Positions 1,255 to 35,862 of a DNA stretch of 64,000 nucleotides are shown one piece after another. Made by a program: the position numbers and the translations under genes. Where the stretch lies: positions 63,984,001 to 64,048,000 of the forward strand of contig CM060733.1 in the NCBI GenBank assembly GCA_030704615.1, read 5' to 3'. This stretch comes from Takakia lepidozioides. Its lineage: Eukaryota > Plantae > Bryophyta. The notes beneath the pieces were generated by a model, which worked only from the letters and a program-made list of their open reading frames with translations, was not told the origin of the DNA and searched no databases. Each line of letters starts with the position of its first letter. Position 1 is the stretch's first letter.

Positions 1255-3761
1255 ACCTAAATGAGGAGGTGAGGAATTGGCAATGTGGTCATTGACCAAA
1301 AATTTCCAGCATCCTCTTTCTGGTCCAAGAAAGCGCGGTATCCATTTTCCAAGGATGGCCACTATCTGTATTTCAGGATCCAGCACCCCCAGCCCTCCTT
1401 TTTTTTTTGGTAAACAGATCTGTATCCAAGCTACCTGTGGTCTCTTGTTGTGAACGGAGCATTCTGCTCCCTATATGAAGTTCCGGAGGAGACGTCTGAT
1501 TTCTTGCATCTCTTTAGAGTTTGGGCGCCATGAGGAGGCATAGTACCATAGACCAGCTGAATGAATCTGATTCACAACTAAGGCTCTTCCAACGAGAGAG
1601 AGATGTTTTGACCCCCAGTAGGTCAATTTTCTCTTTAGCTTGGTTAATGTAGAGGCAAAGATTTGCTGGTCTGTGAGGTTAATTCCAAAGGTATATCCTA
1701 ACAAGGTGGTTGTTTCGCCAGGCTAGAGCCAACTGAGACCCTGATCCACCCCCCAAGAGGGTGGTGAGCCTATAGTTGATGCCGTTAGGTCACCAACGAG
1801 CAAGCTAGAAGTTTTGTTCCAATTAATTTTGAATCCCGAGGCTTTGCAAAAGGTACGCAGAGTATGTCCTGCTTGGTCCAAGTTTTTTGACGTCGCTTGC
1901 AGCATTAAAATGGTGTCATCTACGAACATAGAGTCGGTCAGCTAGGTGTACTGGCCCGTGATATAGTTTGAGACCCTAAGGCCTGTTATGAATTGGTTTT
2001 GCTACAACATATATCCTAGGGTATCTGCCACTACCAGAAACAGAAAGGGTGAGAGGGGACATCCCTGTCTAACCGATCGCTGAAGAGGGAAGGAAGAAGA
2101 CAAGTGGCCATTTACAGTAACCCTACTGGATGAAGAAGTAAGAAGAATCTTAACCCACTTGCAAAAAGAATGAGGGAAGCCAAGTTTTACCAGGGCTGCA
2201 AGCAAGTAAAACCATTCCACCCGATCGAAAGCCTTTTCAAAATCCAAGAGAAGAAGGGCAATGGCTTGATTGGTCCTTAGGGCATAGTCTGGGATTTCCT
2301 GTGCAAGGAGGAGGTTGTCCAGAATATACCAGCCTTTAATAAATCCTGTCTGGTTGGGCCGAATAAGGGATGGTAGAAGAGGTTGAAGTCTAAGGGCGAA
2401 AGCCTTGGCTATGATTTTGTAGGCGACATTCAGAAGGGTTATAGGGCGGTAATTCAAAATATTCGTTCTATCCCCCTTTTTGTACAACAAGGTAATTACC
2501 CCTTGAGCCATTGAAGGTGACGTCTGACCTTGCTGAAACAGATGATTGGCCATAGCTGTAAAATCCCCTAAAATCTCTGGCCACAATGCTTTATAAAACT
2601 CAACAGAAATGCCATCTATACCAGGTGATTTGTTGTTCTGCATCTTAGATAGAGCTTCTTCTAATTCCAAGTCAGAGAAGTCTCCCTCAAGCTGCGCGGC
2701 ATATTCAGGAGAAAGCATGGAAGGGGTGTGAATCAAACAGGCTGTCTGGTCATGAGAAGGATCTAGGGAGGTGCTGTCACTGTGGAAAAGGTGCTGGAAA
2801 TGGCCACCATCAAGGGTTGCCATCGATTTAGGTGTTGTGTTTGAGATCCCCGATGGTTGGGCAACAAGTTCAGAGATGGTTTGAGAAGCTCTTCTCAATC
2901 TGGTTTTGTCGAAGAAGTATTTTGTCATCTTTTCCCCTTTTGTTGACCAGTTAACCCCCGCCTGTAACTTCCACTTTCTCTCCTGGATTTTGTGGTGAAT
3001 GTCAAGATTGTTCCTGGCTTGGACATAAGTTTTGTAAGTATCGTCATCGCAACGACTGGATTCCAATGCATATTGGCATACTCTGAGGCATTTAGATAAG
3101 GCCCTAACCTTTTTCTTTCGGACGACTGCTAATTCTCGGCTTATTCTTTGGCTTTTTGTATTGACCGTTTTTAGCCTGGCCAGGAAGAGCTCAGTTGGGT
3201 TTAGGTCTGGGTTTCCAGCTTGAGACCAAGCCTGCAGAAGACCCTGTTTGAAGGAGGGTCATTTGAGGAGGATATTATTCAGCTTGTAGAGGCCTCTGCC
3301 CCGTCTGCATGAATGAGGGATTGAGATAGAAAGGGTGATTGGTGCATGGTCAAATCCCAAAGGAATGGGTTCCTGCGGGGCTCTTTTAGAGAATTGTACC
3401 AAATTGAGGGAAAGGTAAGCTCTGTCAAGACGAGCCATACTAAGGTCGGTGAGGGTTCTATTATTGGACCATGTAAAGGTGATATTGGATGCTTGACCGA
3501 AAACAAGTGCTGCCTCCTTGAGATTATGTGTTTGAGTTGCGCAAAATTGCAATCTGCCAGGTATCCAAATATCTTTTGCTGCGAGAAAGGGCTGTAAAGA
3601 GGGGGATAACAACATCGTTGTCCCCCCTTTGGTGCCTGAAGAGGTTGGTTTCCAAAGAGAGTTTGTTAAAGGCCATAGATAGTTTTGATTCTCAGCCTTT
3701 TGAGAGATGAAGGGTCACATCCAAGGCCCCCGATGTTCCAGGAATGAAGGTTAAAGGTCAT
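1255..3761 (-). pseudogene. L1-like LINE ORF2 (APE endonuclease + reverse transcriptase), disrupted and 3'-truncated
   Basis: Starts MTFNLHSWNIGGLG at 3761; APE C-terminal motifs FTWSN..ARLDRAYL..DHAPI (ORF 3259-3615); RT motifs KSPGIDG, YRPITLLN, LLDFEKAFDRV, RQGCPLSP (2002-3066), FVDD (1723-1929), GGLGVLD (~1390). Stops, frameshifts and an apparent deletion in APE. Confidence 0.93.
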
Positions 3762-4201: not shown

Positions 4202-4359
4202 AATTGAAGCTGGTAAATGAAACAGGGGAGGGTGAGGCGGGCACCTGAATAGGGGAGGGTAGAGGGGTAGGTGTTAAAACCCTAGGTGGAGAGGTGACTT
4301 GCGAGCTGGCCTGAGAGATGAGTTGAGTGGAGACCGGGATTGGTGGGGGCGATATTTGT
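4202..4359 (-). pseudogene. C-terminal Pro/Ser-rich part of LINE ORF1, separated from the rest by the Gypsy insertion
   Basis: Removing 4360-16169 joins ...PAVETLQ in frame to ISPPPIPVSTQLISQ...SFTSFN*. Confidence 0.7.
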
Positions 4360-4718
4360 TGTCAAGTTAAATAAGCACAGTGTGAAAACAGCTAGAATAA
4401 AACTAGTTATTTGTAGTTAACACTTGGATTTAGGTCAAGTGTTAAATCAGGTGTCAAGTTTAGTTTGACACCTGGTCCGTCTTATCTTCACGAGAGCGGC
4501 AGTCGCGCGGCTCATCTTTCTCGAGTTGAGCCTGCGCGACCGAGCTCCTGTGTGCGTTTAGATCTGAGTTTACTCATGATGGGAGTGTAGGTTGTTGTGG
4601 GGTGGAGTCCCCATAGCTTGGGGTGCCCCTGGCTCGACTACTGTTTTAAAGAGTGATGGTTTTGGATTTCACATTGTTTCTTGTGTGGAGAGCAGTGTCA
4701 TTTGTTAGCTTTCTTATC
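4360..4718 (+). repeat. Terminal repeat A1 (359 bp)
   Basis: Matches 15719-16077 with two transitions seen by eye. Confidence 0.97.
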
Positions 4719-4733
4719 ACTCGAGAAAGATGA
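4719..4733 (+). promoter_or_regulatory. Putative self-priming primer binding site
   Basis: ACTCGAGAAAGATGA lies directly after A1 and is the exact reverse complement of 4512-4526; no TGG-type tRNA PBS is present. Confidence 0.75.
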
Positions 4734-6778
4734 CCTCTTACCTGTGAGTGCAAGGTAGGAGTTGAGGGTTAGCACTTGTACGATTACCTGTGTGTAAGTA
4801 GTGCTTAGTTTTAGAAGCTTAGAAGAAAAAAAAAAAAACAAAACAAAATATGCAGGTTTCGATCAGCGTTGGTTCTGGCATGAGGCCGCCGGGCATGATG
4901 GAGCTACACTGCATGGAAGCAGCCTTTGTTTTGGTCGGTGAGGAGACATCATGGAGTAGCAGCGATTGGCCATTGGGAAACTGACCAAGTGCGAGACTTA
5001 AAGGAGGAGCCTGTGATCGAGCAGATGGGTAGAACTCCCGTGCCTGGAGATGGCCGGGCTGCTCGCCTTAGTTCGATGTGCACAGACCAGTGTTAAATTA
5101 GAACCAGGACAGACCAGAAGCGGTCAGGAAAGGCAGCGGAAGAGCAGGTGGAGCTGGTGTAGCGGAGCCAGTTGAAGGAGGAGCTGTAAATCTGCTCCCT
5201 CCAGTAAATGCAGCGCCGGCAGGTAGAGCATGGCGCAGCGAGCTGGTTGAAGGTGCAGGGCCCGAGAGAGAAAGCCTAGCACAAAGCGATGGAGAACGGG
5301 GAGCCCATTGCTGGCATATCATCAACACTGCAAAACCAGGAGTCTCACAAATCTTCATGCTACTTGTGATTGTGGCTGGAAAGCTGCTTTCACCTGGTCG
5401 ATTATCTGCATAAGCAACCAACTTTCTGACAAAAAGGGTTGTTGGGGGCATTGTTGATTTCGGAGAGTGCAAGGTGCAAAGTCGTTTTCGTTTTTTAAGT
5501 GCTTCAGGTTTGTACAAAGCCAAGTAGCTGTTGCTGCCTTGCACCTTGGGTCCACCATTTTGATGTGGAAACTGGTGGAAAGTCGAATGGTGGTTCACAA
5601 CCCAGCTTTCAACTCAGCACACTGCCCGAGTCCAAGATTGTGGCGATACAGGTCAAGGGAGCTCCAGCTCTATTTGTCTCATCATTGAACACTTCCAACT
5701 GATCACTTGCCTCTACTGTCATTTCGGCGTCAAGGGTACTTACTTCTGCACAGGCGAGCAGGGGAGGAAATGCGAAGACTCGTAGCAGGAGAAGCAATGC
5801 TGACGGATGAGGCCAGCGGACGAGAGCTTCCAAGGGTTGATGGAGAGGCGGTTGAAGGAGGCTGCAGATTGAGTTCCACTTTACTGAGGCAATCGCAAAT
5901 TCCTGTAGAGACTTGATAACTATATGATTGTCTCTCTTATACTGGAGCTGATGCAGATGGACCCAGGCCTTGGGTCTACATGCTGAGCATGGTTCACTTT
6001 CTTTTTCCTGGCAGTGAAGTCGTCTGTGCCTTGTGGGGGTGGTGACGGGGCAATCTGGTGCCTGTTGTCGCCGATCCCTGACCTGTAGAATGCACACAAA
6101 AGCAAACACGAGCAGTAACAGGAAGGCGGAAACCATTCTAAGCCAACAATAATCGTTGGCGAGAGATGCGAATTAGACCAAGTTGATGGAACTTCAAGCT
6201 GGTCTTGGCTTTGGATTCCATGCAAAGACGGCCACATCACAGCAGGCCGCCTGTCCATAAGCCATGAAGGTGCTGCGCAGTGCATCTGCTCTTGAAATCG
6301 CCCCAATTCCTGGTTTGTAGTCTCTAGGTCTCGAGGAGGCAGGCCCACGCGCAGAGAAAGCAAATCGTGATACCCCACCCAACTGAGGTCGAGTGTTGGA
6401 ATTAACGAGCTCTTGGTGCCTGGAGAATCCTGGAGGGGAACGACCTCGGGAACTCGTAGATAACCTGGGAACAGGTTGTAATGGCAAAAGCGTTTTGGTG
6501 TTAAAAAAAAAAAAAACTTTTTTTTTTGATCTAATTTAAATGTTTAAAGAGCCTGGTTGGTCATATCTTTGTCAAATGAGCTCCGTTTGACTCAGTTTTT
6601 GAGGGGATATCTGCAGAAAGGGGAAATCTACCTATCTAGACCTGGTTTCTGTTTTTGGGACTCTGCTAAAAATCTATGGAATTTTTAGAGTGTGAGTGTG
6701 CCATGAAAGATCCACAATCCTGTCTCTAGAACCTGTGCTGGTCTATATGAGAGACAAATTGGTGGATGTACTCCTTGC

Positions 6779-7528
6779 ATGGCTGGGGGAAATGAGGACG
6801 TAATTGAAGGGCAGGTCTCTTCTCTTAGTCTGTGCACACAAGGGGACAGGATTTATGTTTCCCAAGGAACTCAGACTGATTTGAGTGGAGAACAGTTGGA
6901 CGAGTTGATTGCATACTGGGAGTCAGGCATTAGCAGTAGACAACAGACTGCTGTAGTTGGCATTGAGGGCCTCAATATCGCCTTGGACAGTCAGAACTCT
7001 GTTGGAGCCAGCAGTTCTGCAGCTGTAGGTGAAATACCAAAGTGGGTGAAAGCTAGGCTTGGAACACAGCCAAAGACAGCCCCGGGGACCAAGGTGTTCA
7101 GTCACAAGGCCGTGGTGTACTGGAGCAGAGGAGCAGGAGCTACACAAGTTTGTGCAATCAGACATGATTGCAGCCGGATACGCTCTGCACAGGGCAACCA
7201 CGAGCGGGGGTTCATCAGCAATGACATGTTTGTTGTGCGTGAAGGAGATGCAGTCATTCGCAATGAGGACACCCGCAACCGTCTCAAAGCTTTCGAGTTG
7301 AGAGACTATCAAACCCTACCTTTGTTTTCTTTAGTGTTCAGTGAGCGGGAGATAGGGGAGTATTGCTTTGTCTCTACCTGGCAGAAAGAGGAGGAGGGTT
7401 GGTTAGAGCGAGCTACTGTAGCTTGGGACAAGGTTAGTGGCAGGTTTCTGGACATAGATATACCTCCTACACCTTACCATCATGCAGAGCGAGGCACTTT
7501 GAGAGAAGTCTGGCAGTTGATAGCATAG
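6779..7528 (+). CDS. Extra ORF upstream of gag, 249 aa, unknown function
   Basis: ATG-initiated uninterrupted ORF inside the element, same strand as gag-pol; no motif recognised. Confidence 0.5.
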   Translation: MAGGNEDVIEGQVSSLSLCTQGDRIYVSQGTQTDLSGEQLDELIAYWESGISSRQQTAVVGIEGLNIALDSQNSVGASSSAAVGEIPKWVKARLGTQPKTAPGTKVFSHKAVVYWSRGAGATQVCAIRHDCSRIRSAQGNHERGFISNDMFVVREGDAVIRNEDTRNRLKAFELRDYQTLPLFSLVFSEREIGEYCFVSTWQKEEEGWLERATVAWDKVSGRFLDIDIPPTPYHHAERGTLREVWQLIA

Positions 7529-8046
7529 ATCAGGATTAGATCTTGCTTGGTCGGGCTTCTATTCTTCCCCTCCATCTCTGTACTATTTTCATTACCTTGT
7601 ACTTGTAGTTGCCAAAGCCTCTCTTGGTGGAGGCCAGTCAGTCCGGGGTTTTGGGCTGGGATATTCTGCAGGATCAGCGTTGCTGCTGGATTTTGGTGTG
7701 GGGGTGTTGATGTTTTGATTTCTTGTGTTTGGATCCCCCCAACACCTGCATGCTTGACTGTGCGCCATGTTGGTTTTGTGTGGGCGCTTGCTTTCATAGG
7801 GATTAGGCCGGATTTGATCACCGGTCAATCCTAGAGTATGCTGTCGGTGGTGAGGCTGGAGTGATGACCAGCAAGACCACCAGTGTTTCTTCTATGGTGA
7901 GGCTGGGTTGATGACCAGCCAACCATAGGAGTTCTTGCGGTGGATGCAGGTGCAGGTGCCCTGAGCCATTGGGATATGACCCTTAGACTGCAACAGGTGC
8001 CCACCCGTGTCACTATTAGATTAGTACTAGAGCCTTATAGTGTCAC

Positions 8047-9879
8047 GTGGAGGAGGTGCACATTGTGAGTGTCATTACGGAGTTACCCAAGGGTTTTGAG
8101 GGGAGTACGGCTACAAGCAGTGACAGTGAGAGTGGGGTCACAAGACGAGGTATTCGGTTCAGACCACCTTCACCGCCACCCTCAACTACTGTAGCGTCAG
8201 ACACAGACTCGGAGGCTTCATCAACAGGTGTGCACTTTCATTCGCCATTGTTGTGGGACGACATGGAGGAGATGTATGGAGCTACCAAGGGGCCTCGTAG
8301 GTACTCTGGAGCTGTGGGCACAATCGAGTTGGATGACTTTATCCAGGAGTTCGACAGCTGGTGTGATTTGCAGCAGATGCGCAATCCACAGCTATTCACC
8401 CCATTCATGGCGTGGAAGGGACTGTTCCAGCATTTGGAAGGCCCGCCTATGGACGATTACCACGAGTTCAGGCGAGGACATGAAGCAGAGATTGAGGAGT
8501 GGAGGATGTATTGGTCACCTGACTACGTCTCCATTACTCGAGGCACGACGCGACCAGTAGCTGCATCAGTACCAATAGCTCCCACTGCCAGCACTAGTAG
8601 TGGAGCAAGTAGTGCTGGTACTTCTGAAGGTGGTACCAGTTCAAAAGGTGCTTCTCCTGCCACGACTACAACACATTTGCCAAGATTCAACCCGGTGGTG
8701 GAGTTCTTCCAGGAGTTGCGGAGGAACTACCAAGGTGTACGGACAGAGAAGCTGCGAAGTTTGCAAGACTTCCAGCGCAAACCCAGTGAGAGCCTGCGAG
8801 AGGCGTACACTCGTATGAGGCGCTTGATAAGTGTGACCCAAGGGGTTACTGAAGCTCAGGCAATCCAGTTTTGGTATGGAATTCTGGACAAGGAGCTCAA
8901 GAGAAGGGTGCGAGACGCAACCCTGTTACAAGCAGCCCAACCCACATTAGCAGATGTGTTTCTGCTGGCTGAGCGGATTGAGCTCAACATGGTGGAGGAG
9001 CGAGTTGTTACAATTGGATTTGGTAAGGACATGCCTGTACGGGGCACAGCTGTCAGCCCACAAGCACAAGGGACTGCCCAACAGCGTGGTCAGGGGGGCA
9101 AGGTTGCCCAGCCCAAGTTCCATGGAGCTTACAGGGGACCTCAGGTGCAGAGGCCCGTGGCATCTTTTGCAGGCCAACAGCAACCAGGGGTGATATGTTG
9201 GACATGTGGAGGACCCCATGTCAAGAGAGATTGCCCAGAGAGTGGCAGAAGGCCGGCACAAGCACAGCCTGCACAGTTGCAGTGTGGGCATTGTGGCAAG
9301 TATGGGCATGGAGATGCCCAGTGTTATGACTTGCATCCTGAGTTGCGCCCAGGCCAGTTCCAAGGGAACAATGGTGGCCGGGGGCGAGGTGGACCAGCCC
9401 AAAGAGGACGAGGTGGTCGGGCACGAGGTGCAGGCCAAGGGCAACCTCCACATGGCCAAGGACGCGGAGGTCAGGGTGTTGACCAAGGCATGGCCAATCG
9501 GCTTCAGCAGCTAGAGCAGAGGCTCGCTGCCATGGCTATAGCTCAGGCGGTACCGGCTCCCAGGCGGGATGGCCCACCTCCTGCTCCTGAGGGAGGAGAT
9601 ATGGGCGGAATGGGATTCATGTGCGGAGCAGCACTACCATTAGAGCAGGTGGAGTCTGCTGCAGCCGTGACTCGAGGAGCAACACGAGTTCCTGAGCCAC
9701 GAGGTGCAGAGGTGGAGTTGGATCCACAACGTGGGGAGGCAAGCCGTCAGGCAAGGCTGCCTCAGTCATTCACCTTGGCGGAGACAGTGTCAACGCCATC
9801 CATGGCACCTAGTTCTCGCCCGACTGTTACCGAGGCGGAGGTTACTATGCCATTGGGAAGAGCTACCGTGCAGCACTGA
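8047..9879 (+). CDS. gag: Gag (capsid-like region, two zinc knuckles, RGG-rich tail)
   Basis: LQDFQRKPSESLREAYTRMRRL resembles the retrotransposon gag motif; CWTCGGPHVKRDC and CGHCGKYGHGDAQC knuckles. Confidence 0.9.
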   Translation: MEEVHIVSVITELPKGFEGSTATSSDSESGVTRRGIRFRPPSPPPSTTVASDTDSEASSTGVHFHSPLLWDDMEEMYGATKGPRRYSGAVGTIELDDFIQEFDSWCDLQQMRNPQLFTPFMAWKGLFQHLEGPPMDDYHEFRRGHEAEIEEWRMYWSPDYVSITRGTTRPVAASVPIAPTASTSSGASSAGTSEGGTSSKGASPATTTTHLPRFNPVVEFFQELRRNYQGVRTEKLRSLQDFQRKPSESLREAYTRMRRLISVTQGVTEAQAIQFWYGILDKELKRRVRDATLLQAAQPTLADVFLLAERIELNMVEERVVTIGFGKDMPVRGTAVSPQAQGTAQQRGQGGKVAQPKFHGAYRGPQVQRPVASFAGQQQPGVICWTCGGPHVKRDCPESGRRPAQAQPAQLQCGHCGKYGHGDAQCYDLHPELRPGQFQGNNGGRGRGGPAQRGRGGRARGAGQGQPPHGQGRGGQGVDQGMANRLQQLEQRLAAMAIAQAVPAPRRDGPPPAPEGGDMGGMGFMCGAALPLEQVESAAAVTRGATRVPEPRGAEVELDPQRGEASRQARLPQSFTLAETVSTPSMAPSSRPTVTEAEVTMPLGRATVQH

Positions 9880-10189
9880 CACCTACTACCAAGGCTAGTG
9901 CAGCCGGTGTGTTATTGGGAGCAGCCACCTCTGTGTGTCAAGCCCCACTGTTCTCGGCGACCATGATTGCGACGCCGGGAGTGAGACCAGCTGCAGTGTT
10001 CAGACTAGCAGCAACACTCTGCGAGAGTGGAGAGGTCACTTCATCTTCTGCGGAGTTAGTGGAAGGTGTAGTGGCAGAGGGATCCTCGGATTTGAGGGTC
10101 AAGACTGCCACGGCAGCGCCCTGGCAAGCTGCAGCTGCCAGATTGACGGAGCTGCCAGCTAGGCCAGCCTTTGAGCGCGCCATGGTGAC

Positions 10190-10600
10190 ACCTGGAGTTG
10201 TCTTGTTAGACAACCAGGGAGGCATTTTCACTTTGAGTGGACCGGCAGGCAAGCAGTACCGGCCACTGCGGGTCTTGTTGGACTCAGGAGCTCAGCCACT
10301 GATGTTGGGCAGAGCTGCTATTGCAGGTTTGGGCCTCATGGAGGCGGATATGGAGCCTTGTCCTTTCCAGATACAGACATCTCTGGGAGGATCAGAGCAG
10401 GCTCGCGGCATGACATGGCATCAGTGGCTATTAGACTGCAGCCGGATCATCCTGTAGATGGCTCAGTGATGCGAGCCAAGGCCATTGTGACAGACGCGGT
10501 CTCTTACGATGTCCTCGTTGGTGGGGCAGTGTTATACCCCATGGGCTTCACCCTGGATTTCTGGGAGGAGTCAGCATCCTACAGGCCTGGATGGCAGTCA
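10190..10600 (+). CDS. Aspartic protease domain of pol (one frameshift near 10420)
   Basis: RVLLDSGAQPLML catalytic motif at ~10281; YDVLVGGAVL C-terminal motif in the next frame. Confidence 0.85.
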
Positions 10601-10990
10601 GGGGATGGTCGCCGTGCACAGCTCCCTGTGACATTCATTGGGGGTATTGCAGCTGCTCAGCGGGGCAAGATGCCAACACTAGCCGCCTTCACAGCTGCAG
10701 TCAGCTGGCCTGGAGAGTTGCTGGAAGGCAATGCCCATGCAGAGGATGTGCCACCTCCAGCAGAGCAGGATGACATGCATGGTACGGCGGAGTTGCCTGC
10801 CATGGTTGCTCACACTCCGTTGTGGGGTACGAGCAAGGATTTGCAGCACGCTGCTGATGGACGGGTGCAACAAGCTTGGGTAGAAGCTTTTGTACCGTCA
10901 GGAGAGGAGGAGAGTGCGGTGATTGTACCAGGGCCACCTCAGTTGTCGCCATTGGACACCACACCTCTTGTGTGGCAGCGACCGGATGAA

Positions 10991-11945
10991 GGCATATGCC
11001 TTCTGGACTTATTTGGCGGGATCAGCACTGGATTGGCTGCAGTGCTGCAGGCAGGTGTACGAGTTCGACGTTACCTGTATGTGGAGAGGGATGAGACTGC
11101 ACGACGCGTCTCACTGCGCCATGTTGCTCAGATGGTGCAGCAGCACCCTGAGTTGTTGCCGGTGTCTGCAGTTCGTGGATATCAGCAGGCCTTGCCAGCA
11201 GACATTGCGTTGCTGGGGGCGCAGGATTTGGAGCAGGTTGGCTCCATTGATCTGGTAGTGGCAGGTTGGCCCTGCCAAGGGCATTCATCAGCCGGGCATG
11301 GCAATGGATTGCGAGACTCGAGGACGGGTCTGTTTTGGGAGATGGTGCGGATTTTGCGCCACTTGCAGCTTCATTAGGCTGTATCTCCGGCATACATCTT
11401 GGAGAATGTGCCACTGATGGGTGATTCTCGGGCCAGGGTGATGGCCAGTGTGCATCAAGTCCGGTCGTGGCTTGGGTCAGCAGTGTTGCTAGATGCAGCT
11501 GCAGTGGGGTCACGGGCTCATCGTCCACGACTATGGTGGACTAACTTGATGCCACCCGCACTGCTCAAGCGTGCATTTGATGGGGTGCAGCGGCCAGCAC
11601 ACCTCACCGTGGATGGCATTTTGGACACAGGAAGGCAGTCTCAACGTGTGAGACACGATGACCGTTCGCCTTTGGCAGTGGTCAACAGGGTGGGTCAACC
11701 ACGAGCAGCATTACCTACACTGCTCAGCTTCCCAGGATCCTATGCTTTTCGGGATGGTGGACCTGGCCTCCTGTGGGATGCTCAGTTGCAGCAGTTAGTG
11801 GAGCCTAATGCCGACGAGCGAGAGCGGGCTATGGGGTTTTCCACTGGGACCACGGCGGTGCCTTCTCTTTCTGAGGCATCACGTCGTCAGGTGTTGGGGC
11901 AAGCAATGGATCTCAATTGCTTGACCTGGATTGTCAGCTTGGCTA
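10991..11945 (+). CDS. DNMT3-like C5 cytosine DNA methyltransferase domain embedded in pol (in-frame TAG at 11375-11377)
   Basis: Motif I LLDLFGGISTG, II YVERD, IV DLVVAGWPCQGHS, V TGLFWEMVRIL, VI YILENV, VIII AHRPRLWWTNL, IX ERERAMGF, X RRQVLGQAM, in canonical order. Confidence 0.93.
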
Positions 11946-12399
11946 TGGCTGAGCAACGTAGAGTGCGGAGTGCACTTCCCTTGACGGTCTCTCTGCCTAC
12001 CGAGACGGTACAGGCAGCGAGTGGGGGCGAGCCGGTGAGGACCACGAGGTGTAGACATCCATGGCACATGTGGGAGGTGCTCGAGGTTCAGAGGGAGTTG
12101 GCAGCGAAGGCAGCTGTGATGGATGAGGTTGGGGATTCTTCTCGGGATGAGAGGTCCTCAATGATGAGATGATGGGGCAGGATGAGGCCTTGTCATTGAC
12201 TGAGCAGGAAGGGGGTACTGTTCAAGAGGTTGCAGCATAGCAACCACGGGACGCGTCCTCTACCTCTAAGCCCACTGGACTTAAGGTTGCAGTTACGGAG
12301 GACAATTGGGAGCCTGATATTGGACCCATTGTCACCGGAGGAGAGAGACGACGTATACGGCGGTTCCTGAGGGCTTATAGGAATTGCTTTGCCTTCAGT

Positions 12400-13190
12400 T
12401 TGAAGGACTTGGGAGCACTGAAGGGTCAAGAGATCCGTATTGAGTTGGCCACTGACACGCCAATCTTTCGGAGACCCTATAGATACAGTGACATGGAGAG
12501 GTCTTTGATTCAGATGAGGACTCAAGATCTCTGGGAGGCAGGTTTGGTGGAGCTCTCTGGTGGAGAGTATGCTTCAGCCACAGTGATGCCAGCTAAGAAG
12601 GATGTCTATGGCAATTGGACGGAGAGACGTATGTGCGGTGATTACCGGCCTGTAAATCGTCAGACCAAGTCCGATAGGTATGCCATGCCAACACCAGAGG
12701 AGATCTTTGATGCCATTGGGCATTCCAAGGTCTTTAGCACGTTGGATTTACGATCCGGATATCACCAGTTGCCGATCAAGGAGGCGGATAAGCAAAAGAC
12801 GGCATTCTGGGGGATCAATGAGCACGGGAAGGATTGCCTATACCAGTGGCGGTTCTTACCATTTGGGCTTAAAAACGCTCCGCTGAGTTTCAAAGAGTCA
12901 TGGACAGGATTCTAGCAGGGGTGGAGTTTGCTCGGTGCTACATAGATGACATCATCATCTTTAGTGCTACGGTGGAGGAGCATGAGAGACACCTTCAGGG
13001 GGTATTTGAGCGCTTGAGGACGCAAGGATTGAAGTTACATCCGGGCAAGTGCAAGTTTTTCCACAACCAGATTGAGTATCTGGGTCACATGATATATCCT
13101 GGAGGATTGGGGGTACAACAGACTAAGGTAGAGTCCATTGCACAGGTTCCACGCCCCACGGATGTGAGCCGAGTTCGAGCTTTCATGGGT
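12400..13190 (+). CDS. Gypsy reverse transcriptase (frameshifted)
   Basis: RMCGDYRPVN, FSTLDLRSGYHQ, KTAF, LPFGLKNAP, CYIDDIIIFS, YLGHMI. Confidence 0.95.
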
Positions 13191-13261
13191 TAGCAAACTA
13201 TTACAGACGGTTTGTTAAGGGATTTAGTGCCATTGCAAAGGCTCTAACCAAGCTGACCAAG

Positions 13262-13740
13262 GTGGACCAGGAGTGGCAGTGGGAAGATGAGCAAGAACAA
13301 GCTTTTCAAGAGCTCAAGGCGAGGTTGACCTCGGCGCCCATCTTGAGACGACCTATCAGGGGGCGTCCTTTTCAGCTGCATACAGATTGGAGCATGCTGG
13401 GGCTTGGAGCGGTGCTCACACAGGTGGATGATGAGGGAAGAGAGTTCGTAGTGGCTTATGCTAGCCGCTCGAACAATGCTGCAGAGTCTAAGTATAGCTC
13501 ATATGAGGGAGAATGCTTAGCTGCAGTGTGGGCCGTGGCACACTTCAGGTGCTATCTATACGGCAATCTCTTCACCCTTGTCACGGATCACCAACCACTC
13601 AAGTGGTTGATGGAGTCAGACAAGCTTACGGGGAAGCTTGCACGGTGGGCACTCATCCTTCAAGAGTATGACTTTCAGGTGGTGCATCGACCGGGTTTGG
13701 TCAATCGAAATGCAGATGGGTTGAGTCGCAATCCATGCAC
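13262..13740 (+). CDS. RNase H domain
   Basis: FQLHTDWS..GLGAVL, VAYASR, ECLAAVW, TDHQPLKW, NADGLSR. Confidence 0.93.
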
Positions 13741-14099
13741 GAGCCAGCAGGATGACACTGGAGCTCGGTGGCATGGTGAGACGGACGAGGAGATGGTGCC
13801 CGGATGGCATGCATCTGCATTTCTGTGTATCTTGGCAGCGGAAGGCCAGGTTGGACCTACAACAGGGATGACTGTAGATCAAGTGTCTGAGGACCCTGAG
13901 GCCAGCAATGAGCAGGGTGGCGCCAAAGATATACATGAGGATTCAGTTGTGTTGGACTACCTCCGCAGTGGAGACACGACAGCCACTATGACTGCCAAGG
14001 AGAGGGATCGGATCCTACAACGAGCCAAGAGGTTCAGGTGGGAGGGGACACACCTGCTTCGAGTGTGGGAGGATGGTCGAGTGAGGATTGTGCCTCACC

Positions 14100-15200
14100 C
14101 AACACAGCGGGCACGGTTAGTGCGGCATGCCCATGAGGAGTTGGGGCATTTTGGGGTGCGACGCACTCATAGTCTACTGCAAGGGCAGTATTGGTGGCGT
14201 GGTATGCACACAGAGGTGCAACAATTTGTGGCTAGGTGCATGGTGTGTGACAGGGTGCGTGCTTCATTCAACGCCCCTACTCCACAATTGCACCCTCTTC
14301 CGATCATGGGATTGGGCTACAGGTGGAGTCTTGACTTCGCAGGGCCGTTGCCACTGACCATGCGCCACAACAAGTACGTGTTGGTGATGGTGGAGCACTT
14401 CTCCAAGTGGATTGAATTGGTTCCATTGCCTGATAAGGCTAGTGAGGGAGCTGCGTATGCATTCCTGGATTGTGTGCTTAGCCGATTCGGTGCTCCAGCT
14501 GAGGTACTCACGGACCAAGGGAGAGAGTTCTTGGGGGAGTTTCAGGCTTTGTGTGACAAGGCCTTGATAGACCACCGCACCACTTCCGGGATCATCCTGA
14601 AGCCGATGGCTTGGCAGAGAGAGTTGTTCAGACAGTAAAGAGGGGTTTGCGCAAGTATGGCTTGCAGAAGGGACACCTAGGGATTGGGACCTTCAATTAT
14701 CCTGGTTAGCCATGGGCTACAGGTTCAGCAAGCAAGCATCACTTGCCTCCTTCTCACCATACTTTCTTCTCTTTGGCCGAGAGCCGGATTTGCCTACATC
14801 CATTCGCAGAGAAGCTGCTACAGTTCTTAACCTTGACGATCCGGACGTGTGGGCACGTGCATGTGAGCAGCGTGCAGAGTTGTTCAAGAGAGTCATGCCC
14901 ATGGCTTTCGAGAACCTTGCCATTGCACAACACCGTGATACGTTGAGGTATGCTACCATACGTGGTGGGGGCTATCGTCCTGGGGTTCGGAGATTCAACC
15001 CTGGTGACTATGTCTATCTGCAGCAGACTGCTCCTACGACCCTGGATGTGACTGCAGGACGTGTTATTTTGAGGGTTCGAGAGGTCTTGCCCTCAGGCGT
15101 CTTGGTCTTGGAGGGTCGGGATGGCATAACTTGGAAGGACCATGTGCGTAATTGTGCGCCATGTCACCTTCCGAATGTCGATGGCAGGATTGACCCAAAC
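14100..15200 (+). CDS. DDE integrase (HHCC zinc finger + catalytic core; two 1-bp frameshifts)
   Basis: HEELGHFG..CMVC; WSLDFAGPLP; VEHFSKW; LTDQGREF; SPYFLLFGR; the frame is confirmed by the sister copy at 24860-25678. Confidence 0.95.
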
Positions 15201-15227
15201 CTGGCAGTGGTATCTGCAGGTTTGAGG

Positions 15228-15371
15228 TGCATGTTGTGTGGGTCTGCTAAAGGGGCAGCCACCATGCTGGTGTGCGATCAATGCTCTAGAGGTTGGCATA
15301 TGGGATGCTTGACTCCACCTCTTGAGATGGTTCCGGATGGGGATTGGTTATGTCCACATTGCATTGGATAG
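15228..15371 (+). CDS. PHD finger at the integrase C-terminus
   Basis: CMLC..MLVCDQCSRGWHMGCLTPPLEMVPDGDWLCPHC is a complete C4HC3 pattern. Confidence 0.95.
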   Translation, partial: CMLCGSAKGAATMLVCDQCSRGWHMGCLTPPLEMVPDGDWLCPHCIG

Positions 15372-15620
15372 TGGGAGTGGATACAACCATGGAAGGCTAA
15401 CAAGAAACGCAAGGCCCAGCTACTAGGAGACCTTGAACACACGAGGTCCTGGCTCAAGTTCACAGATTGCAAGATGACGACTAACGATGGGGCTACTCTT
15501 GTACCCGGCCTCTTGGTCTATAGAGTTTGAGTACAATAGGGACAGTGATAGAGGACTTAGTACGGCTGTGGCTATTACATCTTGTAGCTATCTGGAGGTA
15601 GAGGGACCTATCCACCAGCT

Positions 15621-15629
15621 AGGGGGGCG
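15621..15629 (+). promoter_or_regulatory. Polypurine tract
   Basis: AGGGGGGCG immediately before AT-TGTGG, the start of repeat B1. Confidence 0.75.
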
Positions 15630-15716
15630 ATTGTGGCAGACTACTTTATTGTGCATATATGTGTGGTGTGGTTTGGACAGCGATGTAGTTGTGTAGCGAT
15701 ATGTATGCGCACGACA
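15630..15716 (+). repeat. Terminal repeat B1 (87 bp)
   Basis: Identical by eye to 16079-16165. Confidence 0.97.
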
Positions 15717-15718
15717 GC

Positions 15719-16077
15719 TGTCAAGTTAAATAAGCACAGTGTGAAAACAGCTAGAATAAAACTAGTTATTTGTAGTTAACACTTGGATTTAGGTCAAGTG
15801 TTAAATCAGGTGTCAAGTTTAGTTTGACACCTGGTCCGTCTTATCTTCACGAGAGCGGCAGTCGCGCGGCTCATCTTTCTCGAGTTGAGCCTGCGCGACC
15901 GAGCTCCTGTGTGCGTTTAGATCTGAGTTTACTCATGATGGGAGTGTAGGTTGTTGTGGGGTGGAGTCCCCATAGCTTGGGGTGCCCCTGGCTCGACTAT
16001 TGTTTTAAAGAGTGATGATTTTGGATTTCACATTGTTTCTTGTGTGGAGAGCAGTGTCATTTGTTAGCTTTCTTATC
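15719..16077 (+). repeat. Terminal repeat A2 (359 bp)
   Basis: Copy of 4360-4718; separated from B1 by GC. Confidence 0.97.
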
Positions 16078-16078
16078 T

Positions 16079-16165
16079 ATTGTGGCAGACTACTTTATTG
16101 TGCATATATGTGTGGTGTGGTTTGGACAGCGATGTAGTTGTGTAGCGATATGTATGCGCACGACA
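16079..16165 (+). repeat. Terminal repeat B2 (87 bp), right end of the element
   Basis: Copy of B1; ends GACA and is followed by the TSD TTGT. Confidence 0.97.
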
Positions 16166-16169
16166 TTGT

Positions 16170-24859: not shown

Positions 24860-25678
24860 GTGTTGGTGATGGTGGAGCACTTCTCCAAGTGGATTGAGTT
24901 GGTTCCATTGCCTGACAAGGCTAGTGAGGGGGCTGCGTATGCATTCTTGGATCGTGTGCTTAGCCGATTTGGTGCTCCAGCTGAGGTACTCACGGACCAA
25001 GGGAGAGAGTTCTTGGGGGAGTTTCATGCTTTGTGTGATAAAGCCTTGATAGACCACCGCACCACTTCTCGGGATCATCCTGAGGCCGATGGCTTGGCAG
25101 AGAGAGTTGTTCAGACGGTGAAGAGGGGTTTGCGCAAGTATGGCTTGCAGAAGGGACACCTAGGAGATTGGGATCTTCAGGTTCCTTGGTTAGCCATGGG
25201 CTACAGGTTCAGCAAACAAGCATCACTTGCCTCCTTCTCACCATATTTCCTTCTCTTTGGCCGAGAGCCGGATTTGCCTGCAGCCATTCGTAGGAACACT
25301 GCTCAAGTCCTTAACCTTGACGATCTGGACGTGTGGGTACGTGCATGTGATCAGCGTGCAGAATTGTTCAAGAAAGTCATGCCCATGGCTTTTGAGAACC
25401 TTGCCATTGCACAACACCGTGATACGTTGAGGTATGCCACTATACGTGGTGGAGGATATCGTCCTGGGGTTCGGAGGTTTACCCCTGGTGACTATGTTTA
25501 TTTGAAACAGACTGCTCCTACGACTCTGGATGTTACTGCAGGGCGTGTTATTCTGAGGGTTCGAGAGGTGTTGCCCTCAGGGGTCCTGATCTTGGAGGGT
25601 CGGGACGGCATGACTTGGAAGGACCATGTGCGTAATTGTGCGCCATGTCACCTTCCCAATGTCGATGGCAGAGTTGAC
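24860..25678 (+). mobile_element. Second, partial copy of the DNMT-Gypsy integrase
   Basis: Near-identical protein to 14378-15194, in one open frame; stops just before the PHD. Confidence 0.95.
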
Positions 25679-27281: not shown

Positions 27282-30200
27282 TGTTGGAATTCGACAGAGA
27301 ATAGAGATTAAAGATGAACTGGTTACTGAGAACTCTCCACCCAACCATAGGACCACAACAAGCTGTGTCCACCCTTCGAGCTCTCCCTATTTATACTCAA
27401 AGTCTAATCCAGAAATAGCTGAGATAACTATAGCATAACTGCATGCTTTTACTTAAGATATCTCCATCTGCTATTCTGGTACAATGACTTGAGTCACTAA
27501 TAACTGAAGCTAACTTTAGCTATCTTTTAGCTAACCGAGGCTTATCTCTATTGTTAACTGTGACTTGTTAGTATGTCTGGTTGTAGATATGTTTAATTAC
27601 TTCCAACACTCCCACTCAATTAAACCATATCATTGAGCTACTTCGTTTGTCTTTGGAGAAGAGACACCAAGTAAGGTTGAACACTTCATGTGTTTTGTTT
27701 GTGGTAGACTCTTCGTCAAAACATCCGCAACCATATCTCCTGTAGCACAATAGATCATCTTGATCTCTCCCTTGCATACAACTTCCCGTATGTAGTGTTG
27801 TTGCACTTCAATGTGCTTCGTCCTTGAATATATTTCGGATTCTGACTTAGTGCAATCGCACTTTGATTGTCACAATAGAGAGTCGTAGGTAGTGATTGGA
27901 GATGATCCAAATCTTCAAGCAAATTCCGTAACCAAATAGCCTCATTTGCTGCTTGTGTAATGGACATGTACTCAGCTTCTGTTGATGACAACGCTGTTGC
28001 AACTTGTCGTTTGCTAGACCAAGATACAGCTCCACCTGCTAGGAGAAAACAATGACCTGAAGTTGATTTTCTACTATCAACGTCTCCTGCCCAGTCAGCA
28101 TCAGCAAACCCCAACAAACTTGGATCTTCCACTCTCTTATAGAGTAGACCAGAGGTTGATGTTCCTCTTAGATATCGAAATATCTTCTTCACTGCTTTCC
28201 AATGGGTTTGTCCGGGATTTGAAAGAAATTGTGAGACCACTCCCACTGAGATCTCCTTAGAATTGACACATCTTCAACTTCATCTCTAGAGTCCATATCA
28301 ACAAGTGGTTCACCAACTTCGACTCCTTGATCAACTCTATCAAGTTGAACACCTCCATCATTTGCTTCAGCCATCTCTTGTATTGGCTCCTCATAAGACT
28401 CATCTTGGAAATGGTGTAATGGCTCTAAGCTCATTCCCATGTCATCTTCTCCCACTACCAAAGAGGGTATGAAGCTTTCATCAAACACTACGTCCCTACT
28501 GTGTTTGACAGCCTTAGTTGTCTTATTGAACAACTTATATCCTTTCACACCTTCTGTGTAGCCAATAAAGATGCATCCTTCTGATTTGGAGTCAAATTTC
28601 CTTCGCTTCTGAGTAGAGATATGGACATATGCACGACATCCAAAAATCCTACAATGAGCCACACTAGGCTTCTGACCACTCCATACCTCTTCTGGTGTTT
28701 TTCCCAACACTGATTTGGTAGATATTCTGTTGTGAAGATATGTTGCAGTGCCAACAGCTTCTGCCCAAAAATAATTTGAAAGATTCACTTCTTTCAACAT
28801 ACTCCTTGCAGATTCTTGTAGTGATCTATTCATCCGCTCAGCTACACCATTCTGCTCAGGTGTATATGGAACAGTAAACTGTCGAGCTATTCCATTCTCT
28901 TGACAAAACTGATTGAAAGCCTTTGAGATGTACTCACCACCATTGTCAGATCTCAAAATCTTAAGAGGCTTTCCAGTTTGTTTTTCTGCAAGTACTTTGA
29001 ACTCCTTGAATTTCTCTAGCACTTGACTTTTCTGCCTTAGGAAATTCACCACAACCCTTCTTGACAAATCATCAATGAATGTCACAAAGTACCTTACTCC
29101 TCCAAGTGATGTGGTTTGCATTGGCCCGCACACATCAGAATGTACAATCTCCAATATACTTGTGGCTCTTCGTCCACCATCCTTAGGAAATTGACCTCGA
29201 TGTTGCTTCCCTTCAAAGCAACCTTTGCATAGACGCATATCGCTCATCTCCTTCAATGGTAGTCATTCCACAAGATGGCTTGAGAGTTGCATCTGTCTCA
29301 ACTTCTTAATGCTCACATGACCTAACCTTCTATGCCACAACTCTGTTTCTGACATGACAGTGTAGATCCCAACTGTGGTGAAAATGTGGTAAGAGCACTA
29401 GAGACATGATGTTGTAATCTATACAAGCAATTATCAAGAATAGCTCTTGCTACCACAGCTCCTGAGCTATCTGTGATAGTACAACTCTCATCTTGGAATA
29501 CCACTCTGTATCCCTTTGCAAACAATTTGCCTTACAGACAGCAGGTTCTTTGTTAAAGTAGGGACATGTAGGACATTTTCCACCTCTATGGTTTCCCCTT
29601 CATTGAGCATAAGAGAGACTGAGCCTTCCCCACCAATGACATGCTTGCTATCATCTCCCAAAAAAACATATTGTGTAGGTGAAAGAGATCTATAGGATAA
29701 GCATCTCTGAACTCATATGTTGAGATGCTCCTGAATCAACATACCACACATGCTTCTGTCTAGTAGTGGCTGAGAGAGACACAACAAATAGAATAGCATT
29801 CCTCTGATGAGTAGCTATGTTTCCTTGACTCTCTCTGCTGCGCTCATCTGCAATGCGCTTTCTACAATCCTTGATCATGTGACCAAGTTTCTTGCAATAA
29901 AAGCACCTCATTTTGGCCTTTTTGATCTTTGAGCTAGATTGAGGTTTCTGAAACCTCTGGGACTTCTGAGACATATGTGAAGGGAGTCTTCTATTCAAGA
30001 CTACTCCAGTCTTGCCTGTGAACAAAGCTCTGTCTACCTCTGTAGACGTACCTTGACATTTTCTTCTTGTTTCCTCCTTGAGGAGAAGTCTTATGACAAC
30101 ATCAATGGTTAAGTTGGTTTGTCCTGCTAGAGACACCACAAAACCATCATAGGATTCAAGTAAGGTTGCCAATAACACCACTGCGACGTGTTCATCAGTC

Positions 30201-31051
30201 ACATTAGTTCCCACAGAGACTAGTTGATCTCGCAACACACAAAACAAATTCAAGTGTTGTTCAACTGAGTCTGACTCGGTCATCTTCAGACCATAGAACT
30301 TTTGCGTCGCATACACTTGCGATGTGACATCCTTCGTCTCATATATGCTTGCTAGCTTGTCCCAAACATCCTTAGCATTCTTAGCACTTATAATGAGATG
30401 CAACTGTTTGTCTCTCAAACTTGTGATGATGCTAGCTCTTGCTTTCTAATCTTTCCTATCCCATATGGCTTGGCCAACAATAGTGTCAGGTCTTGGGACT
30501 GATCCATCAACCACTCCCCATAGATCTTTGTCTAGAAGGACCATCTCCATCATAAACTTCCAGGTTTGATAGTTAGCTCCATTGAATCGATCTTCCACTC
30601 TCACATCTAATGTACTCGTCATAGACATAGAAGGAGGATTGCTAGAAGACGACGCTCCAGCCATAATCAAGTTCTCTCATCTCAACTACCAACTCTCACC
30701 TAGAGAAGAATGGCTCTGATACCATGTTGGAATTCGACAGAGAATAGAGATAAAAGATGAACTGATTACTGAGAACTCTCCACCCAACCATAGGACCACA
30801 ACAAGCTGTGTCCACCCTCCGAGCTCTCCCTATTTATACTCAAAGTCTAATCCAGAAATAGCTGAGATAACTATAACATAACTCCATGCTTTTACTTAAG
30901 ATATCTCCACCTGCTATCCCGGTACAATGACTTGAGTCACTAATAACTGAAGCTAACTTTAGCTATCTTTTAGCTAACCGAGGCTTATCTCTATTGTTAA
31001 CTGTGACTTGTCAGTATGTCTGGTTGTAGATTTGTTTAATTACTTCCAACA
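27282..31051 (-). mobile_element. Ty1/Copia element, internally deleted (most of RT missing)
   Basis: 327-bp LTRs at 27282-27608 and 30725-31051 (TGTTGG..CCAACA, about 10 differences); TSD GAAAA; tRNA-iMet PBS TGGTATCAGAGCC at 30712-30724; PPT near 27609-27619; gag CFYCKKLGHMIKDC, protease WYVDSGAS, integrase HSDVCGP/LRSDNGGEY/EQNGVAER, RNase H DADWAG. Confidence 0.97.
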
Positions 31052-32949: not shown

Positions 32950-33776
32950 CGGAGGGGTCGGAGGGATCGGAGGACACGGGCATCCCCTGTGGAGTATCCC
33001 AACAATGGCAGAGTTGGAGCCGTTCGCAGTATGGGTGAGGGCAGCGATTGCGGCATATCCCTCTGAGAATGAGGTAGAGGACAAAGATATGATATATCTT
33101 TCGTTCCCCCCCCCTTTTGACTGTCACCTCGTACCGGTCAATGAAAGCATATGGGAACCACTACAGGGTGGATGATGAAGATTCTCCTGTCCTCGTGACT
33201 TTTGATAGCGGGGTTGCTGTCGTTTTTACACAGGAGAGCAGGAGCAGTGCACGAGACAGGAATCCTGTCACATCTCCTTTACAATACGTGGGAGTCATAA
33301 AAGAAATTCTGAAACTTGACTATGGCCATGAAGTAGAACCCATTGTGTTCCGGTGTTCTTGGGTGAGATGCAACATGGTGGGAGAAAATGCCACCATGAA
33401 AAGAGATGAATATGGTTTGCTGATGGCTGAATTTGGAAGATTGTTACCCGAGCATGAGGAGCCTTTCACTTTTCCTTCCCAAGTAGAACAAGTGTTCTTT
33501 TCAGATTGCCCACGAGCACCGGGGTGGAAGGCTGTCATCCACAAGGATCCTCGAGCTCGAAGAGTAGTAGCAGATGTGAACGAGGTCGACATTGGGGAGA
33601 ATGCGGACTTTGTGGGTTTAAGGGAACCTCCGAATTTGCTGGATATGGTACAACCAACGTGTTTAGAAGGTGCTGTTGAATTGACGGCTGAAGAGATTGC
33701 CGAGGCACAAAACTGTTCTGCTGGAGTTTTGGAGGACAATACTGTAGGACAGTGGAGCGACTCCGATGGAGACTGA
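32950..33776 (+). pseudogene. CACTA TnpD/Tnp2 C-terminal fragment (DUF4216-like)
   Basis: YVGVIKEILKLDYG..VFRCSWV..RDEYGL..EPFTFPSQVEQVFFSD..GWKAVI. Confidence 0.85.
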
Positions 33777-34779: not shown

Positions 34780-35862
34780 TTAACAAAGGCCATCGAGTGA
34801 GGTTTGCAGATCATAAATGTGATCCATGTCCTCCCCGTATGTGTCACTTGATGGCCTGCCTAAATAAAAAGGAATGACTAGTCTCATTTTGCAATGCGCA
34901 TTCCTGCTTGGACACCGCAAACTTGGGCATTGTTGCTTACGAGCCTCGGCGTATTTGGCCACCCCCACAGCCACCATGACAGCCCTCACACAGGCCTGTT
35001 CTTTCAGGCCGTTTGGTGCCTCCACATATGCTGGTCGGCTCACCTGCAACCATTTATGTTGCTGCCACCTTGGTGATGAAAGGATCCCTAGGTTCAACTT
35101 TCAGCTTGCTTATGGACATGATGAATTGTTCACATGTCATCTTTAAGCTGTTCTCGAGCTCCTTCTTTGCATCTGTTTGATAGTCCAAAACACCGGATGA
35201 AAATGTGTGAGCCAGGGACTGACTGCTCCATAATGATTGCTGACCTTTGAATATGCGGCGCAAATGCTCCAGCAAGTGTGTGGAATCTATCTCCTTGTGT
35301 GTTACAGAAAAATCTATGTCAAAGGGTGCGATCTGTTCCTGGAGTATCAGCAGATGCTTGATGACAAAAAGTTCTCCATCCATTTGAGAAGATCGCCTCT
35401 CTATCAATTTGCTCACACGTTGAATGGATGCAGAACACATACCAATAGCATCCTGTGCAAGACAGGTAAAAATTGCAGGCTCCAGACAGCGGTACAGCTT
35501 GGAGAGAGCCGATAAAGTTTTCTCCAATGGTGGGTACCAGGTTGCATACAAATCTCTTCCCTCCTCCTCATTCCCAGAGGCTGATGCAGCACTTTGCTCC
35601 AGTTTAGCTGGAAAGTCAAGATCCTCTTCAGATGGAAGGTAGTTGGCAAGCACATCCCGCATGTGTGTCTAGGCAGGAAAGGTGAGCCTTTTTTGGACAT
35701 CCGCAAGGGTTCGTAAGACAGTCGGATGCACCCCTGCCACCCCAAATGCTCATGAAGCACCTCTGCTTTGAGAGTATGTACAACCTCACAAAGTCGATCC
35801 AAGTCTGCCTCATGGATAAACCGTGCAGAGTGTCATAAGGCACTGTACACAGGGGGTCACAT
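34780..35862 (-). pseudogene. COG3: COG3 (Sec34) pseudogene, duplicated C-terminal segment
   Basis: [54 protein letters not shown]; paralogous to 37185-38030. Confidence 0.88.

Follow-up and report, generated by a model that had tools for sequence, protein, structure and literature searches.

The 64,000-nucleotide stretch of Takakia lepidozioides contig CM060733.1 analysed here (the window) contains an 11.8-kb Ty3/Gypsy retrotransposon at 4360–16165, which starts with TGTC, finishes with GACA (TG..CA termini) and is flanked by a 4-bp target-site duplication (TSD). Pfam matches together with motif reading gave the domain order Gag, protease, DNA methyltransferase (DNMT), reverse transcriptase (RT), RNase H, integrase and PHD finger. 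The element has the Gag-protease-RT-RNase H-integrase order, DDE integrase, polypurine tract (PPT), TG..CA ends and TSD within 4–6 bp by which Ty3/Gypsy elements (Metaviridae) are recognized; it departs from that family in lacking two identical terminal long terminal repeats (LTRs). Its left and right ends carry different repeats, in the arrangement A...B-A-B, which rules out two normal LTRs. Membership of Troyka was also ruled out, as Troyka elements have CG..CG ends and a 3-bp TSD and occur in animals only (PMC12440569). The original prediction, made from the DNA letters, had placed a methyltransferase between protease and RT. The protease DSG motif upstream (10275) and the RT YIDD motif downstream (12939) bear this out, while the split-repeat ends, att palindrome, self-priming site and PHD finger described below had been overlooked.

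The methyltransferase motifs all lie in a single frame from 10175 and run unpermuted from I to X, unlike those of DRM enzymes. PF00145 matched the piece ahead of an in-frame stop with E 2.1e-10 and, with the stop read as X, with E 1.5e-13. A sequence search of the PDB returned DNMT3A (4e-11), DNMT3B (3e-8), DRM2-type entries (1.5e-4) and HhaI (2e-4), with no DNMT1, MET1 or CMT entry named among its 45 matches. When an AlphaFold model of the domain (pLDDT 75.5, pTM 0.81) was searched with Foldseek, all 38 listed rows were DNMT3A, B or C (best E 4.8e-14, TM 0.61), and an Atlas search with the domain gave generic DNA methylase clusters and nothing else. DNMT3A/B came first in both the sequence and the fold rankings, at an identity of no more than about 21%. 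The predicted assignment of 10994–11950 as a DNMT3-like C5 methyltransferase was thereby confirmed; judged by these rankings, its nearest kin is DNMT3, ahead of DRM, DNMT1/MET1/CMT and bacterial enzymes. The domain is interrupted by the one in-frame TAG that had been predicted (11375–11377). Contigs with another letter at this place made up about 99.7% of the summed depth in run X1 and 100% in X5 and X13, indicating that the TAG of the window copy is a rare lesion in the family.

Two protein searches (207 and 95 matches) found relatives in Marchantia polymorpha (many), M. paleacea, Riccia, Calypogeia, Sphagnum, Closterium and Chromochloris, to which cluster look-ups with 30 proteins added Hariotina, Mesostigma and Klebsormidium nitens; with an E cut-off of 1e-30, a profile search returned 463 clusters. 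Among the listed matches that bear an organism name (most bear none), ferns, lycophytes, hornworts and seed plants were absent, and 92 pattern matches in viral contigs included no relative. In a FastTree analysis of 150 DNMT domains, two clades with support of 99 each were separated by the position of the DNMT. The first, with the DNMT after the protease, holds the window, liverworts, Sphagnum, Closterium, Mesostigma and Klebsormidium. The second (P0163–P0204, P0382–P0501; including Hariotina and Chromochloris) carries its DNMT between RNase H and integrase and has the same C-terminal PHD finger. A single shift of the domain seems to separate the two clades, in quick and FastTree trees that were midpoint-rooted and included no host DNMT. 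An RNase H tree with one outgroup also split the two DNMT positions (89), a single origin being beyond its reach.

One clade of 49 rows (support 99) unites the window DNMT with the K. nitens protein KFL_013780020 (P0448), which we take to be one of the copies behind the 2018 description of KnitGypsy-Dnmt3. This protein, with zinc knuckle, protease and DNMT, is 39% identical to the window sequence (E 1e-61), and the element very probably belongs to the KnitGypsy-Dnmt3 kind. The published element likewise carries an intronless, unpermuted DNMT3 under purifying selection in a Gypsy backbone, and the legend of its Fig. 4c gives a DIRS-like repeat arrangement which the window, L024, L031, L047 and L059 fit (PMC5890265). 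Unlike here, that paper puts the DNMT in the Pol open reading frame (ORF) with RT and RNase H, and its host is not a moss; its accessible text does not describe priming, an att palindrome, a circle route or a PHD finger. Retrotransposon-borne cytosine methyltransferases are also found in SymbioDIRS-Dnmt3 and EpiLTRs, but these are independent captures, with a DIRS backbone or with a DNMT4-related enzyme accompanied by DAM and a chromodomain (PMC5890265; bioRxiv 10.64898/2026.05.21.726589). Later papers specify only 'streptophytes' as the hosts (PMC12344493, bioRxiv 10.64898/2026.05.21.726589). Our literature search, which covered neither Repbase, subscription journals nor the 2018 main and preprint supplements, found no report on such elements in land plants or on their readthrough, priming or circle route, and no paper naming any of five Marchantia loci searched by name.

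From mosses to chlorophytes, relatives retain the catalytic Cys, ENV and RxR; among 217 full-length relatives, [PE]CQ was present in 187 and EN[VT] in 179. Comparison of the window DNMT with 42 de-duplicated loci gave a median dN of 0.24 at a saturated dS of about 2, similar to the values for the other domains (dN/dS of gag 0.26/3.1, RT 0.19/2.2). The single unsaturated pair, L032/L034, gave dN 0.032 and dS 0.256 for the DNMT, and dN/dS between families was about 0.12. By these substitution rates the DNMT domain is under purifying selection, and its presence in sister copies, evident from the relatives' loci and the contig depth, is as had been anticipated. Unbroken ORF1 proteins, labelled hypothetical, are annotated in Marchantia polymorpha, a model liverwort in which the family is open to testing; should such element-borne enzymes be expressed, the numbers of DNMT3 genes counted in bryophytes and the results from methylation mutants may have to be interpreted anew.

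The original prediction had set the DNMT inside pol, as a pol cleavage product. This part of it did not survive comparison with the relatives of its clade, where the DNMT forms the end of the Gag-protease frame; RT, RNase H, integrase and PHD finger come after a conserved in-frame stop. In nine Marchantia proteins (P0125, P0126, P0130, P0131, P0135, P0244, P0245, P0251, P0252) the chain terminates 72–74 amino acids past the DNMT, in a distant clade 82–128 amino acids past it, and in the retrieved K. nitens protein, marked partial, after 12. The window Gag is 51% identical to P0219 and P0244, both of which continue as a single frame. We fetched 72 loci and examined 62 with a DNMT end, in 47 of which a Pol anchor, the first conserved Pol motif, was found. 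All 47 have an in-frame stop 16–24 codons ahead of the anchor, and DNMT and RT share one frame in 36 of the 47 loci holding both; P0017 runs across the joint into the Pol frame. CAR directly follows the stop in 46/47 loci (CARYYN in 46/47), compared to 16/504 decay stops, and the full CARYYA in 6/47. These six belong to three other subfamilies; the window has the full context too (TAG CAA CCA at 12238). Other loci have CAA CTA or CAA CCA, CAG TTA or CAA TCA. The context is kept in nucleotides as the encoded residues vary (QP, QL, QS). CARYYA, the context of tobacco mosaic virus, promotes readthrough (PMC4132726), and a leaky stop ahead of Pol is known but rare among retrotransposons (PMC3441728, PMC4600332). 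RNA structure 3' of the stop was weak (z –2.4; 4 of 200 shuffles equally good). P0159 and P0240 were considered as a readthrough pair and rejected, their difference being due to frame breaks. As read from these frames, the DNMT ends the Gag-protease-DNMT frame (ORF1) and lies outside Pol in the land-plant clade, where it is likely made at the level of Gag, the capsid protein, with RT and integrase in small amounts. Ribosomes would, with good probability, make Gag-protease-DNMT and mostly halt at the conserved UAG, occasional readthrough at CAR-YYA giving the long product with RT, RNase H, integrase and PHD finger.

Reverse transcription appears to start from the element's own RNA. Directly behind A1, 15 bases pair without mismatch to 4512–4526 within A, compared to at most 11 in 1000 shuffles and at most 8 in 107 control 30-mers (fold z –4.2). 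In peat-moss-like relatives the primer site is changed at 8 of 15 positions and its partner has changed to match, 11 of 14 loci tested having 13–17 of 17 Watson-Crick pairs. No TGG-type site follows A1 by inspection of the site (a tRNA library was not searched), and tRNA priming was set aside. Pairing of the primer site with the element's own repeat and the compensatory changes suggest self-priming of the Tf1 type. We consider it probable that the RNA begins within repeat A and that its 5' end would pair with the site after A1 and prime reverse transcription, as in Tf1. Tf1/sushi/Tcn1 and Tj1 elements share a primer site complementary to the 5' repeat, and Tj1 needs a stop before Pol, but they have normal LTRs and their stop lies ahead of the protease (PMC4600332, PMC6317226). 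The window element differs from them further in having a PHD finger and a DNMT and no chromodomain match.

The element reads A1, internal region, PPT, B1, two bases, A2, one base and B2. Four loci (L024, L031, L047, L059) share this A...B-A-B layout, and three more (L011, L026, L062) show its 3' half; exact 4-bp TSDs flank 9 of the 10 elements with both ends (the window and 8/9 loci). The junction of B, two bases and A, CA-nn-TG, is kept in 8/8 listed loci (decay allowed) and in the distant L032. The joint between A and B is precise in 6/8 distinct insertions; the inexact ones hold 10 nt of primer-site sequence (L039/L040) or filler (L031), as expected of end-joined circles. Since the PPT stands ahead of B1, ordinary reverse transcription would yield LTRs of the form B-GC-A. 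Joining the cDNA ends would then create the A-B joint, and a cut at the upstream palindrome would give exactly A...B-A-B. This suggests that the layout fits an integrase opening an end-joined 2-LTR circle. In the route that we moderately favour, cDNA with two B-GC-A LTRs would be joined end to end into such a circle, and the DDE integrase would cut GACA/GC/TGTC of the upstream LTR, leaving CA-3' ends with 2-nt overhangs, before insertion with a 4-bp TSD.

Retroviral integrases are able to cut a palindromic circle junction, and the DDE integrases of foamy virus and HIV-1 do so at a CA..TG junction; theirs is an end-to-end joint and a side path, whereas here the site would be inherited within the LTR and its cutting the main route (PMC1905944, PMC1180852). 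Split direct repeats of the form A1-B1-A2-B2 are known from PAT/TOC1, Ngaro and VIPER, and PAT also carries a methyltransferase, but the element described here has a DDE (rve) integrase, TG..CA ends, a 4-bp TSD and a C5 rather than an adenine-type enzyme (PMC4157794). The Pfam scan of the element frames found rve and H2C2 and no tyrosine recombinase family. The A...B form, seen in four loci, had been a candidate proof of 1-LTR-circle insertion. This was ruled out by L021 (A...B) and L060/L062 (A...B-A-B), which occupy the same insertion site, so that A...B copies can reflect recombination between the two B repeats after insertion, equivalent to solo-LTR formation, or assembly collapse.

Two observations sit poorly with the circle route. 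The primer-site remnant stems from one rearranged insertion, and a circle with two equal att sites predicts A-B-A...B as well, yet B was upstream in none of 18 distinct left ends. That single arrangement would be accounted for if the reverse transcriptase itself made A...B-A-B, an extra end-to-end template jump adding a copy of B at the right end and the integrase acting on a linear or nicked molecule with no ligated circle. Such a jump has been proposed for PAT/Ngaro elements, and the precision of most A-B joints agrees with it. The filler and primer-site remnants at 2/8 joints fit end joining instead, and the left end would still require a cut of the internal palindrome; we regard the template jump as possible but clearly second to the circle. 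The CG beside the palindrome cut is kept in most copies, and it is open to speculation that a mark set by the DNMT selects one of the two att sites for cutting. Integration from the circle, if true, would make the main route of a DDE integrase what retrovirology treats as a dead end, which has been shown for no LTR element; elements with such split repeats would escape tools that seek two equal LTRs.

Why transposons carry their own silencing enzyme has been an open question since 2018, the lone plant-lineage example being inactive in yeast. On balance we lean towards reading the window element as a young, broken moss Ty3/Gypsy copy whose DNMT3-like enzyme, closing the Gag-protease frame, is likely co-assembled into the particle and likely methylates new cDNA before insertion. 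Packaging with cDNA methylation is a hypothesis of de Mendoza 2018 (PMC5890265), and expression at the Gag level makes packaging more likely. A DNMT made with Gag would be a bulk component of the particle, which points to cDNA as its substrate and is directly testable. Packaging of the DNMT and methylation of the cDNA or circle are an evenly balanced proposition. So is the further step in which the protease-freed enzyme would put 5-methylcytosine on either molecule and the copy would land marked like host heterochromatin, with the PHD finger steering insertion there. The solved PHD fingers nearest to that of the element are those of CHD4, PHF12, KDM5A/B, DPF3, ATXR5 and PHF21A. In 67 of 76 relatives Gly occupies what we take to be the position of the Trp of H3K4me3 readers; the finger presumably resembles readers of unmethylated H3K4, and its targeting of H3K4-unmethylated chromatin is our guess. 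More tentatively still, the family may be an ancient PHD-bearing Ty3 lineage of green algae, liverworts and mosses whose particles hold as much DNMT3 as capsid protein, which primes itself and inserts from a circle opened at an inherited LTR palindrome, its copies arriving pre-methylated.

Several observations weigh against an active, packaged enzyme. The K. nitens element enzyme gave no methylation in yeast, a test that its authors call inconclusive; human DNMT3B likewise failed in it, and SymbioDIRS DNMT3s were active on CG (PMC5890265). The CpG observed/expected ratio is 0.46–0.58 in the element, not below that of the flanks (0.40–0.49), leaving no footprint of self-methylation. In the decayed, dominant peat-moss-like family the dN/dS of the DNMT (0.62) is the top of five domains (RT 0.47, integrase 0.55). 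DNMT and RT share one open frame in several algal-type relatives (P0167, P0383, P0240, Closterium P0513), so that a capsid-level DNMT is not universal. For the stop itself, TAA is used in 11/47 loci, and the 47 loci are four subfamilies rather than independent cases, most being of one family and some the same insertion. In the dominant peat-moss-like family the stop is followed by CAA-CCC, which departs from the consensus at one base, and an ATG stands two codons past the stop, so reinitiation is possible there.

A DNMT made with Gag could instead act in the nucleus on chromatin, at promoters of its own or rival elements or at the insertion site, and limit the size of a burst. Gag-level output would presumably far exceed the enzyme need of one cDNA, and host-benefit and insertion-site effects are among the options of de Mendoza 2018 (PMC5890265). 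Location in a protease-processed polyprotein favours packaging, and the DNMT of the second clade, between RNase H and integrase, is likewise part of a particle polyprotein; we hold the nuclear role to be unlikely. Somewhat more doubtful is a plain terminator role for the stop, with ribosomes reinitiating at an AUG further downstream, or a spliced RNA, supplying Pol. Ogre-type elements are a precedent, and the ATG of the dominant family agrees with it, but L005/L063, L032 and the window have no such ATG. The first in-frame Met of the window lies 85 codons past the stop, beyond conserved Pol sequence, and the conserved context with varying residues, together with the frame kept over the stop in most loci, favours readthrough. 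Least probable is that the element retains the domain for binding DNA or RNA, or as an RNA 5-methylcytosine enzyme, and that it does not methylate DNA, since the negative yeast result, the missing CpG footprint and ECQ in place of PCQ in some algal-type relatives are set against the widely kept catalytic residues, the equal failure of DNMT3B and the CG activity of SymbioDIRS enzymes (PMC5890265).

Table 1. Features of the Ty3/Gypsy element in the window, with the motifs of its DNMT domain.
Feature	Position	Strand	Basis or remark
Left TSD, 4 bp	4356–4359	+	identical to 16166–16169; element-free joint 4355 to 16166 in X1 and X5 contigs
Repeat A1, left element end, starts TGTC	4360–4718	+	99.4% to A2, 2 differences in 359
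Predicted self-primer, likely transcript 5' end	4512–4526	+	perfect 15-nt complement of 4719–4733
Predicted primer-binding site adjoining A1, non-TGG start	4719–4733	+	complement; matching changes in relatives
273-codon open frame, 5' region	6707–7528	+	ORF list; high depth in run X1
Gag (capsid, Cys/His knuckles, Gly/Arg-rich region), first part of ORF1	8134–9876	+	PF03732, E 0.0016
Aspartic protease, DSG at 10275	9900–10660	+	frame breaks near 9860–9900 and 10420; insertion row at 10424
DNMT3-like C5 cytosine methyltransferase	10994–11950	+	PF00145, motifs, PDB and fold searches; in-frame stop 11375–11377
Motif I LDLFGG	11003–11020	+	
Motif II VERD	11081	+	
Motif IV IDLVVAGWPCQG	11246–11281	+	
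LFWEM	11330	+	
Motif VI YILENV	11393–11410	+	
Motif VIII AHRPRLWWTNL	11516–11548	+	
Motif IX ERERAMGF	11816–11839	+	
Motif X RQVLGQAM	11885–11908	+	
Conserved in-frame stop with CAR-YYA context, predicted ORF1/Pol readthrough site	12238–12246	+	relatives' loci
Reverse transcriptase and RNase H	12241–13740	+	PF00078, PF17917, PF17919; frame breaks near 12880 and 13190
DDE integrase (H2C2 finger, rve core)	14060–15200	+	PF17921, PF00665; frame breaks near 14590 and 14680
PHD finger, integrase C-terminus	15225–15368	+	PF00628, E 4.5e-11
Polypurine tract	15617–15629	+	kept immediately 5' of B1 in window and 4 aligned relatives
Repeat B1, ends GACA	15630–15716	+	100% to B2
Palindrome GACA-GC-TGTC, right-end/left-end junction, predicted att site	15713–15722	+	alignment of ends
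Repeat A2	15719–16077	+	99.4% to A1
Repeat B2, right element end, ends GACA	16079–16165	+	one additional base at A2/B2 joint
Right TSD, 4 bp	16166–16169	+	identical to left TSD

The near-identity of the repeats (Table 1) indicates that the insertion is young. Besides the frame breaks listed in the table, another was found near 12150, on the basis of 28 loose ends at 12151 in run X1, one 91–95% identical protein and the relatives. Together with the in-frame stop in the DNMT, these breaks leave the window copy unable to move by itself; some of the single-base breaks could be assembly errors. Depth over the element was about 1,500-fold that of the flank in X1 and 200-fold in X5, which shows abundance and gives no copy number. 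The element sits in a minus-strand element with RT at 2002–3258, probably a long interspersed nuclear element (LINE). Contigs of X1 and X5 join 4355 to 16166 without the insertion, but the flanks of the empty-site contig differ from the window at several positions, and this contig may stem from a different copy of the LINE that took the insertion, so that an insertion polymorphism is unsupported. The target flank 4343–4359 (GGGGGCGAT then TTGT) is similar to the PPT-B1 border of the element at 15620–15633; this is probably chance, as the left flanks of related loci lack the likeness.

The 273-codon frame had no Pfam, PDB or convincing Atlas match and no counterpart in related loci; abundant by depth, it is a possible accessory gene. 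At about 4850–6500 the depth was about 100-fold below that of the rest of the element, with A/T runs at both borders and three minus-strand open frames without Pfam match, and this segment is perhaps a captured or nested piece. The integrase region of the element recurs at 24860–25678 (+) as a truncated second copy that is 92.6% identical and lacks PHD finger and end repeats.

Elsewhere in the window, an intronless, decayed COG3 retrocopy at 35057–39151 (–) is partly duplicated and interleaved with four PPR-like repeats (about 35990–37190). It groups with Physcomitrium and one JGI protein at 100/99, which makes a moss host likely, in agreement with the land-plant host suspected from the letters; its second piece falls in a weak moss and liverwort group only (80/74). 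In a further decayed Ty3-like element, at 50441–53529 (+), the RT/RNase H region is preceded by a dUTPase domain (PF00692, E 1.6e-5). The window further holds a Copia remnant with gag, rve and SH3 (28189–30445, –), a DUF4216 transposon piece (33093–33776, +) and a DUF789 gene with an intron (56190–59098, +).
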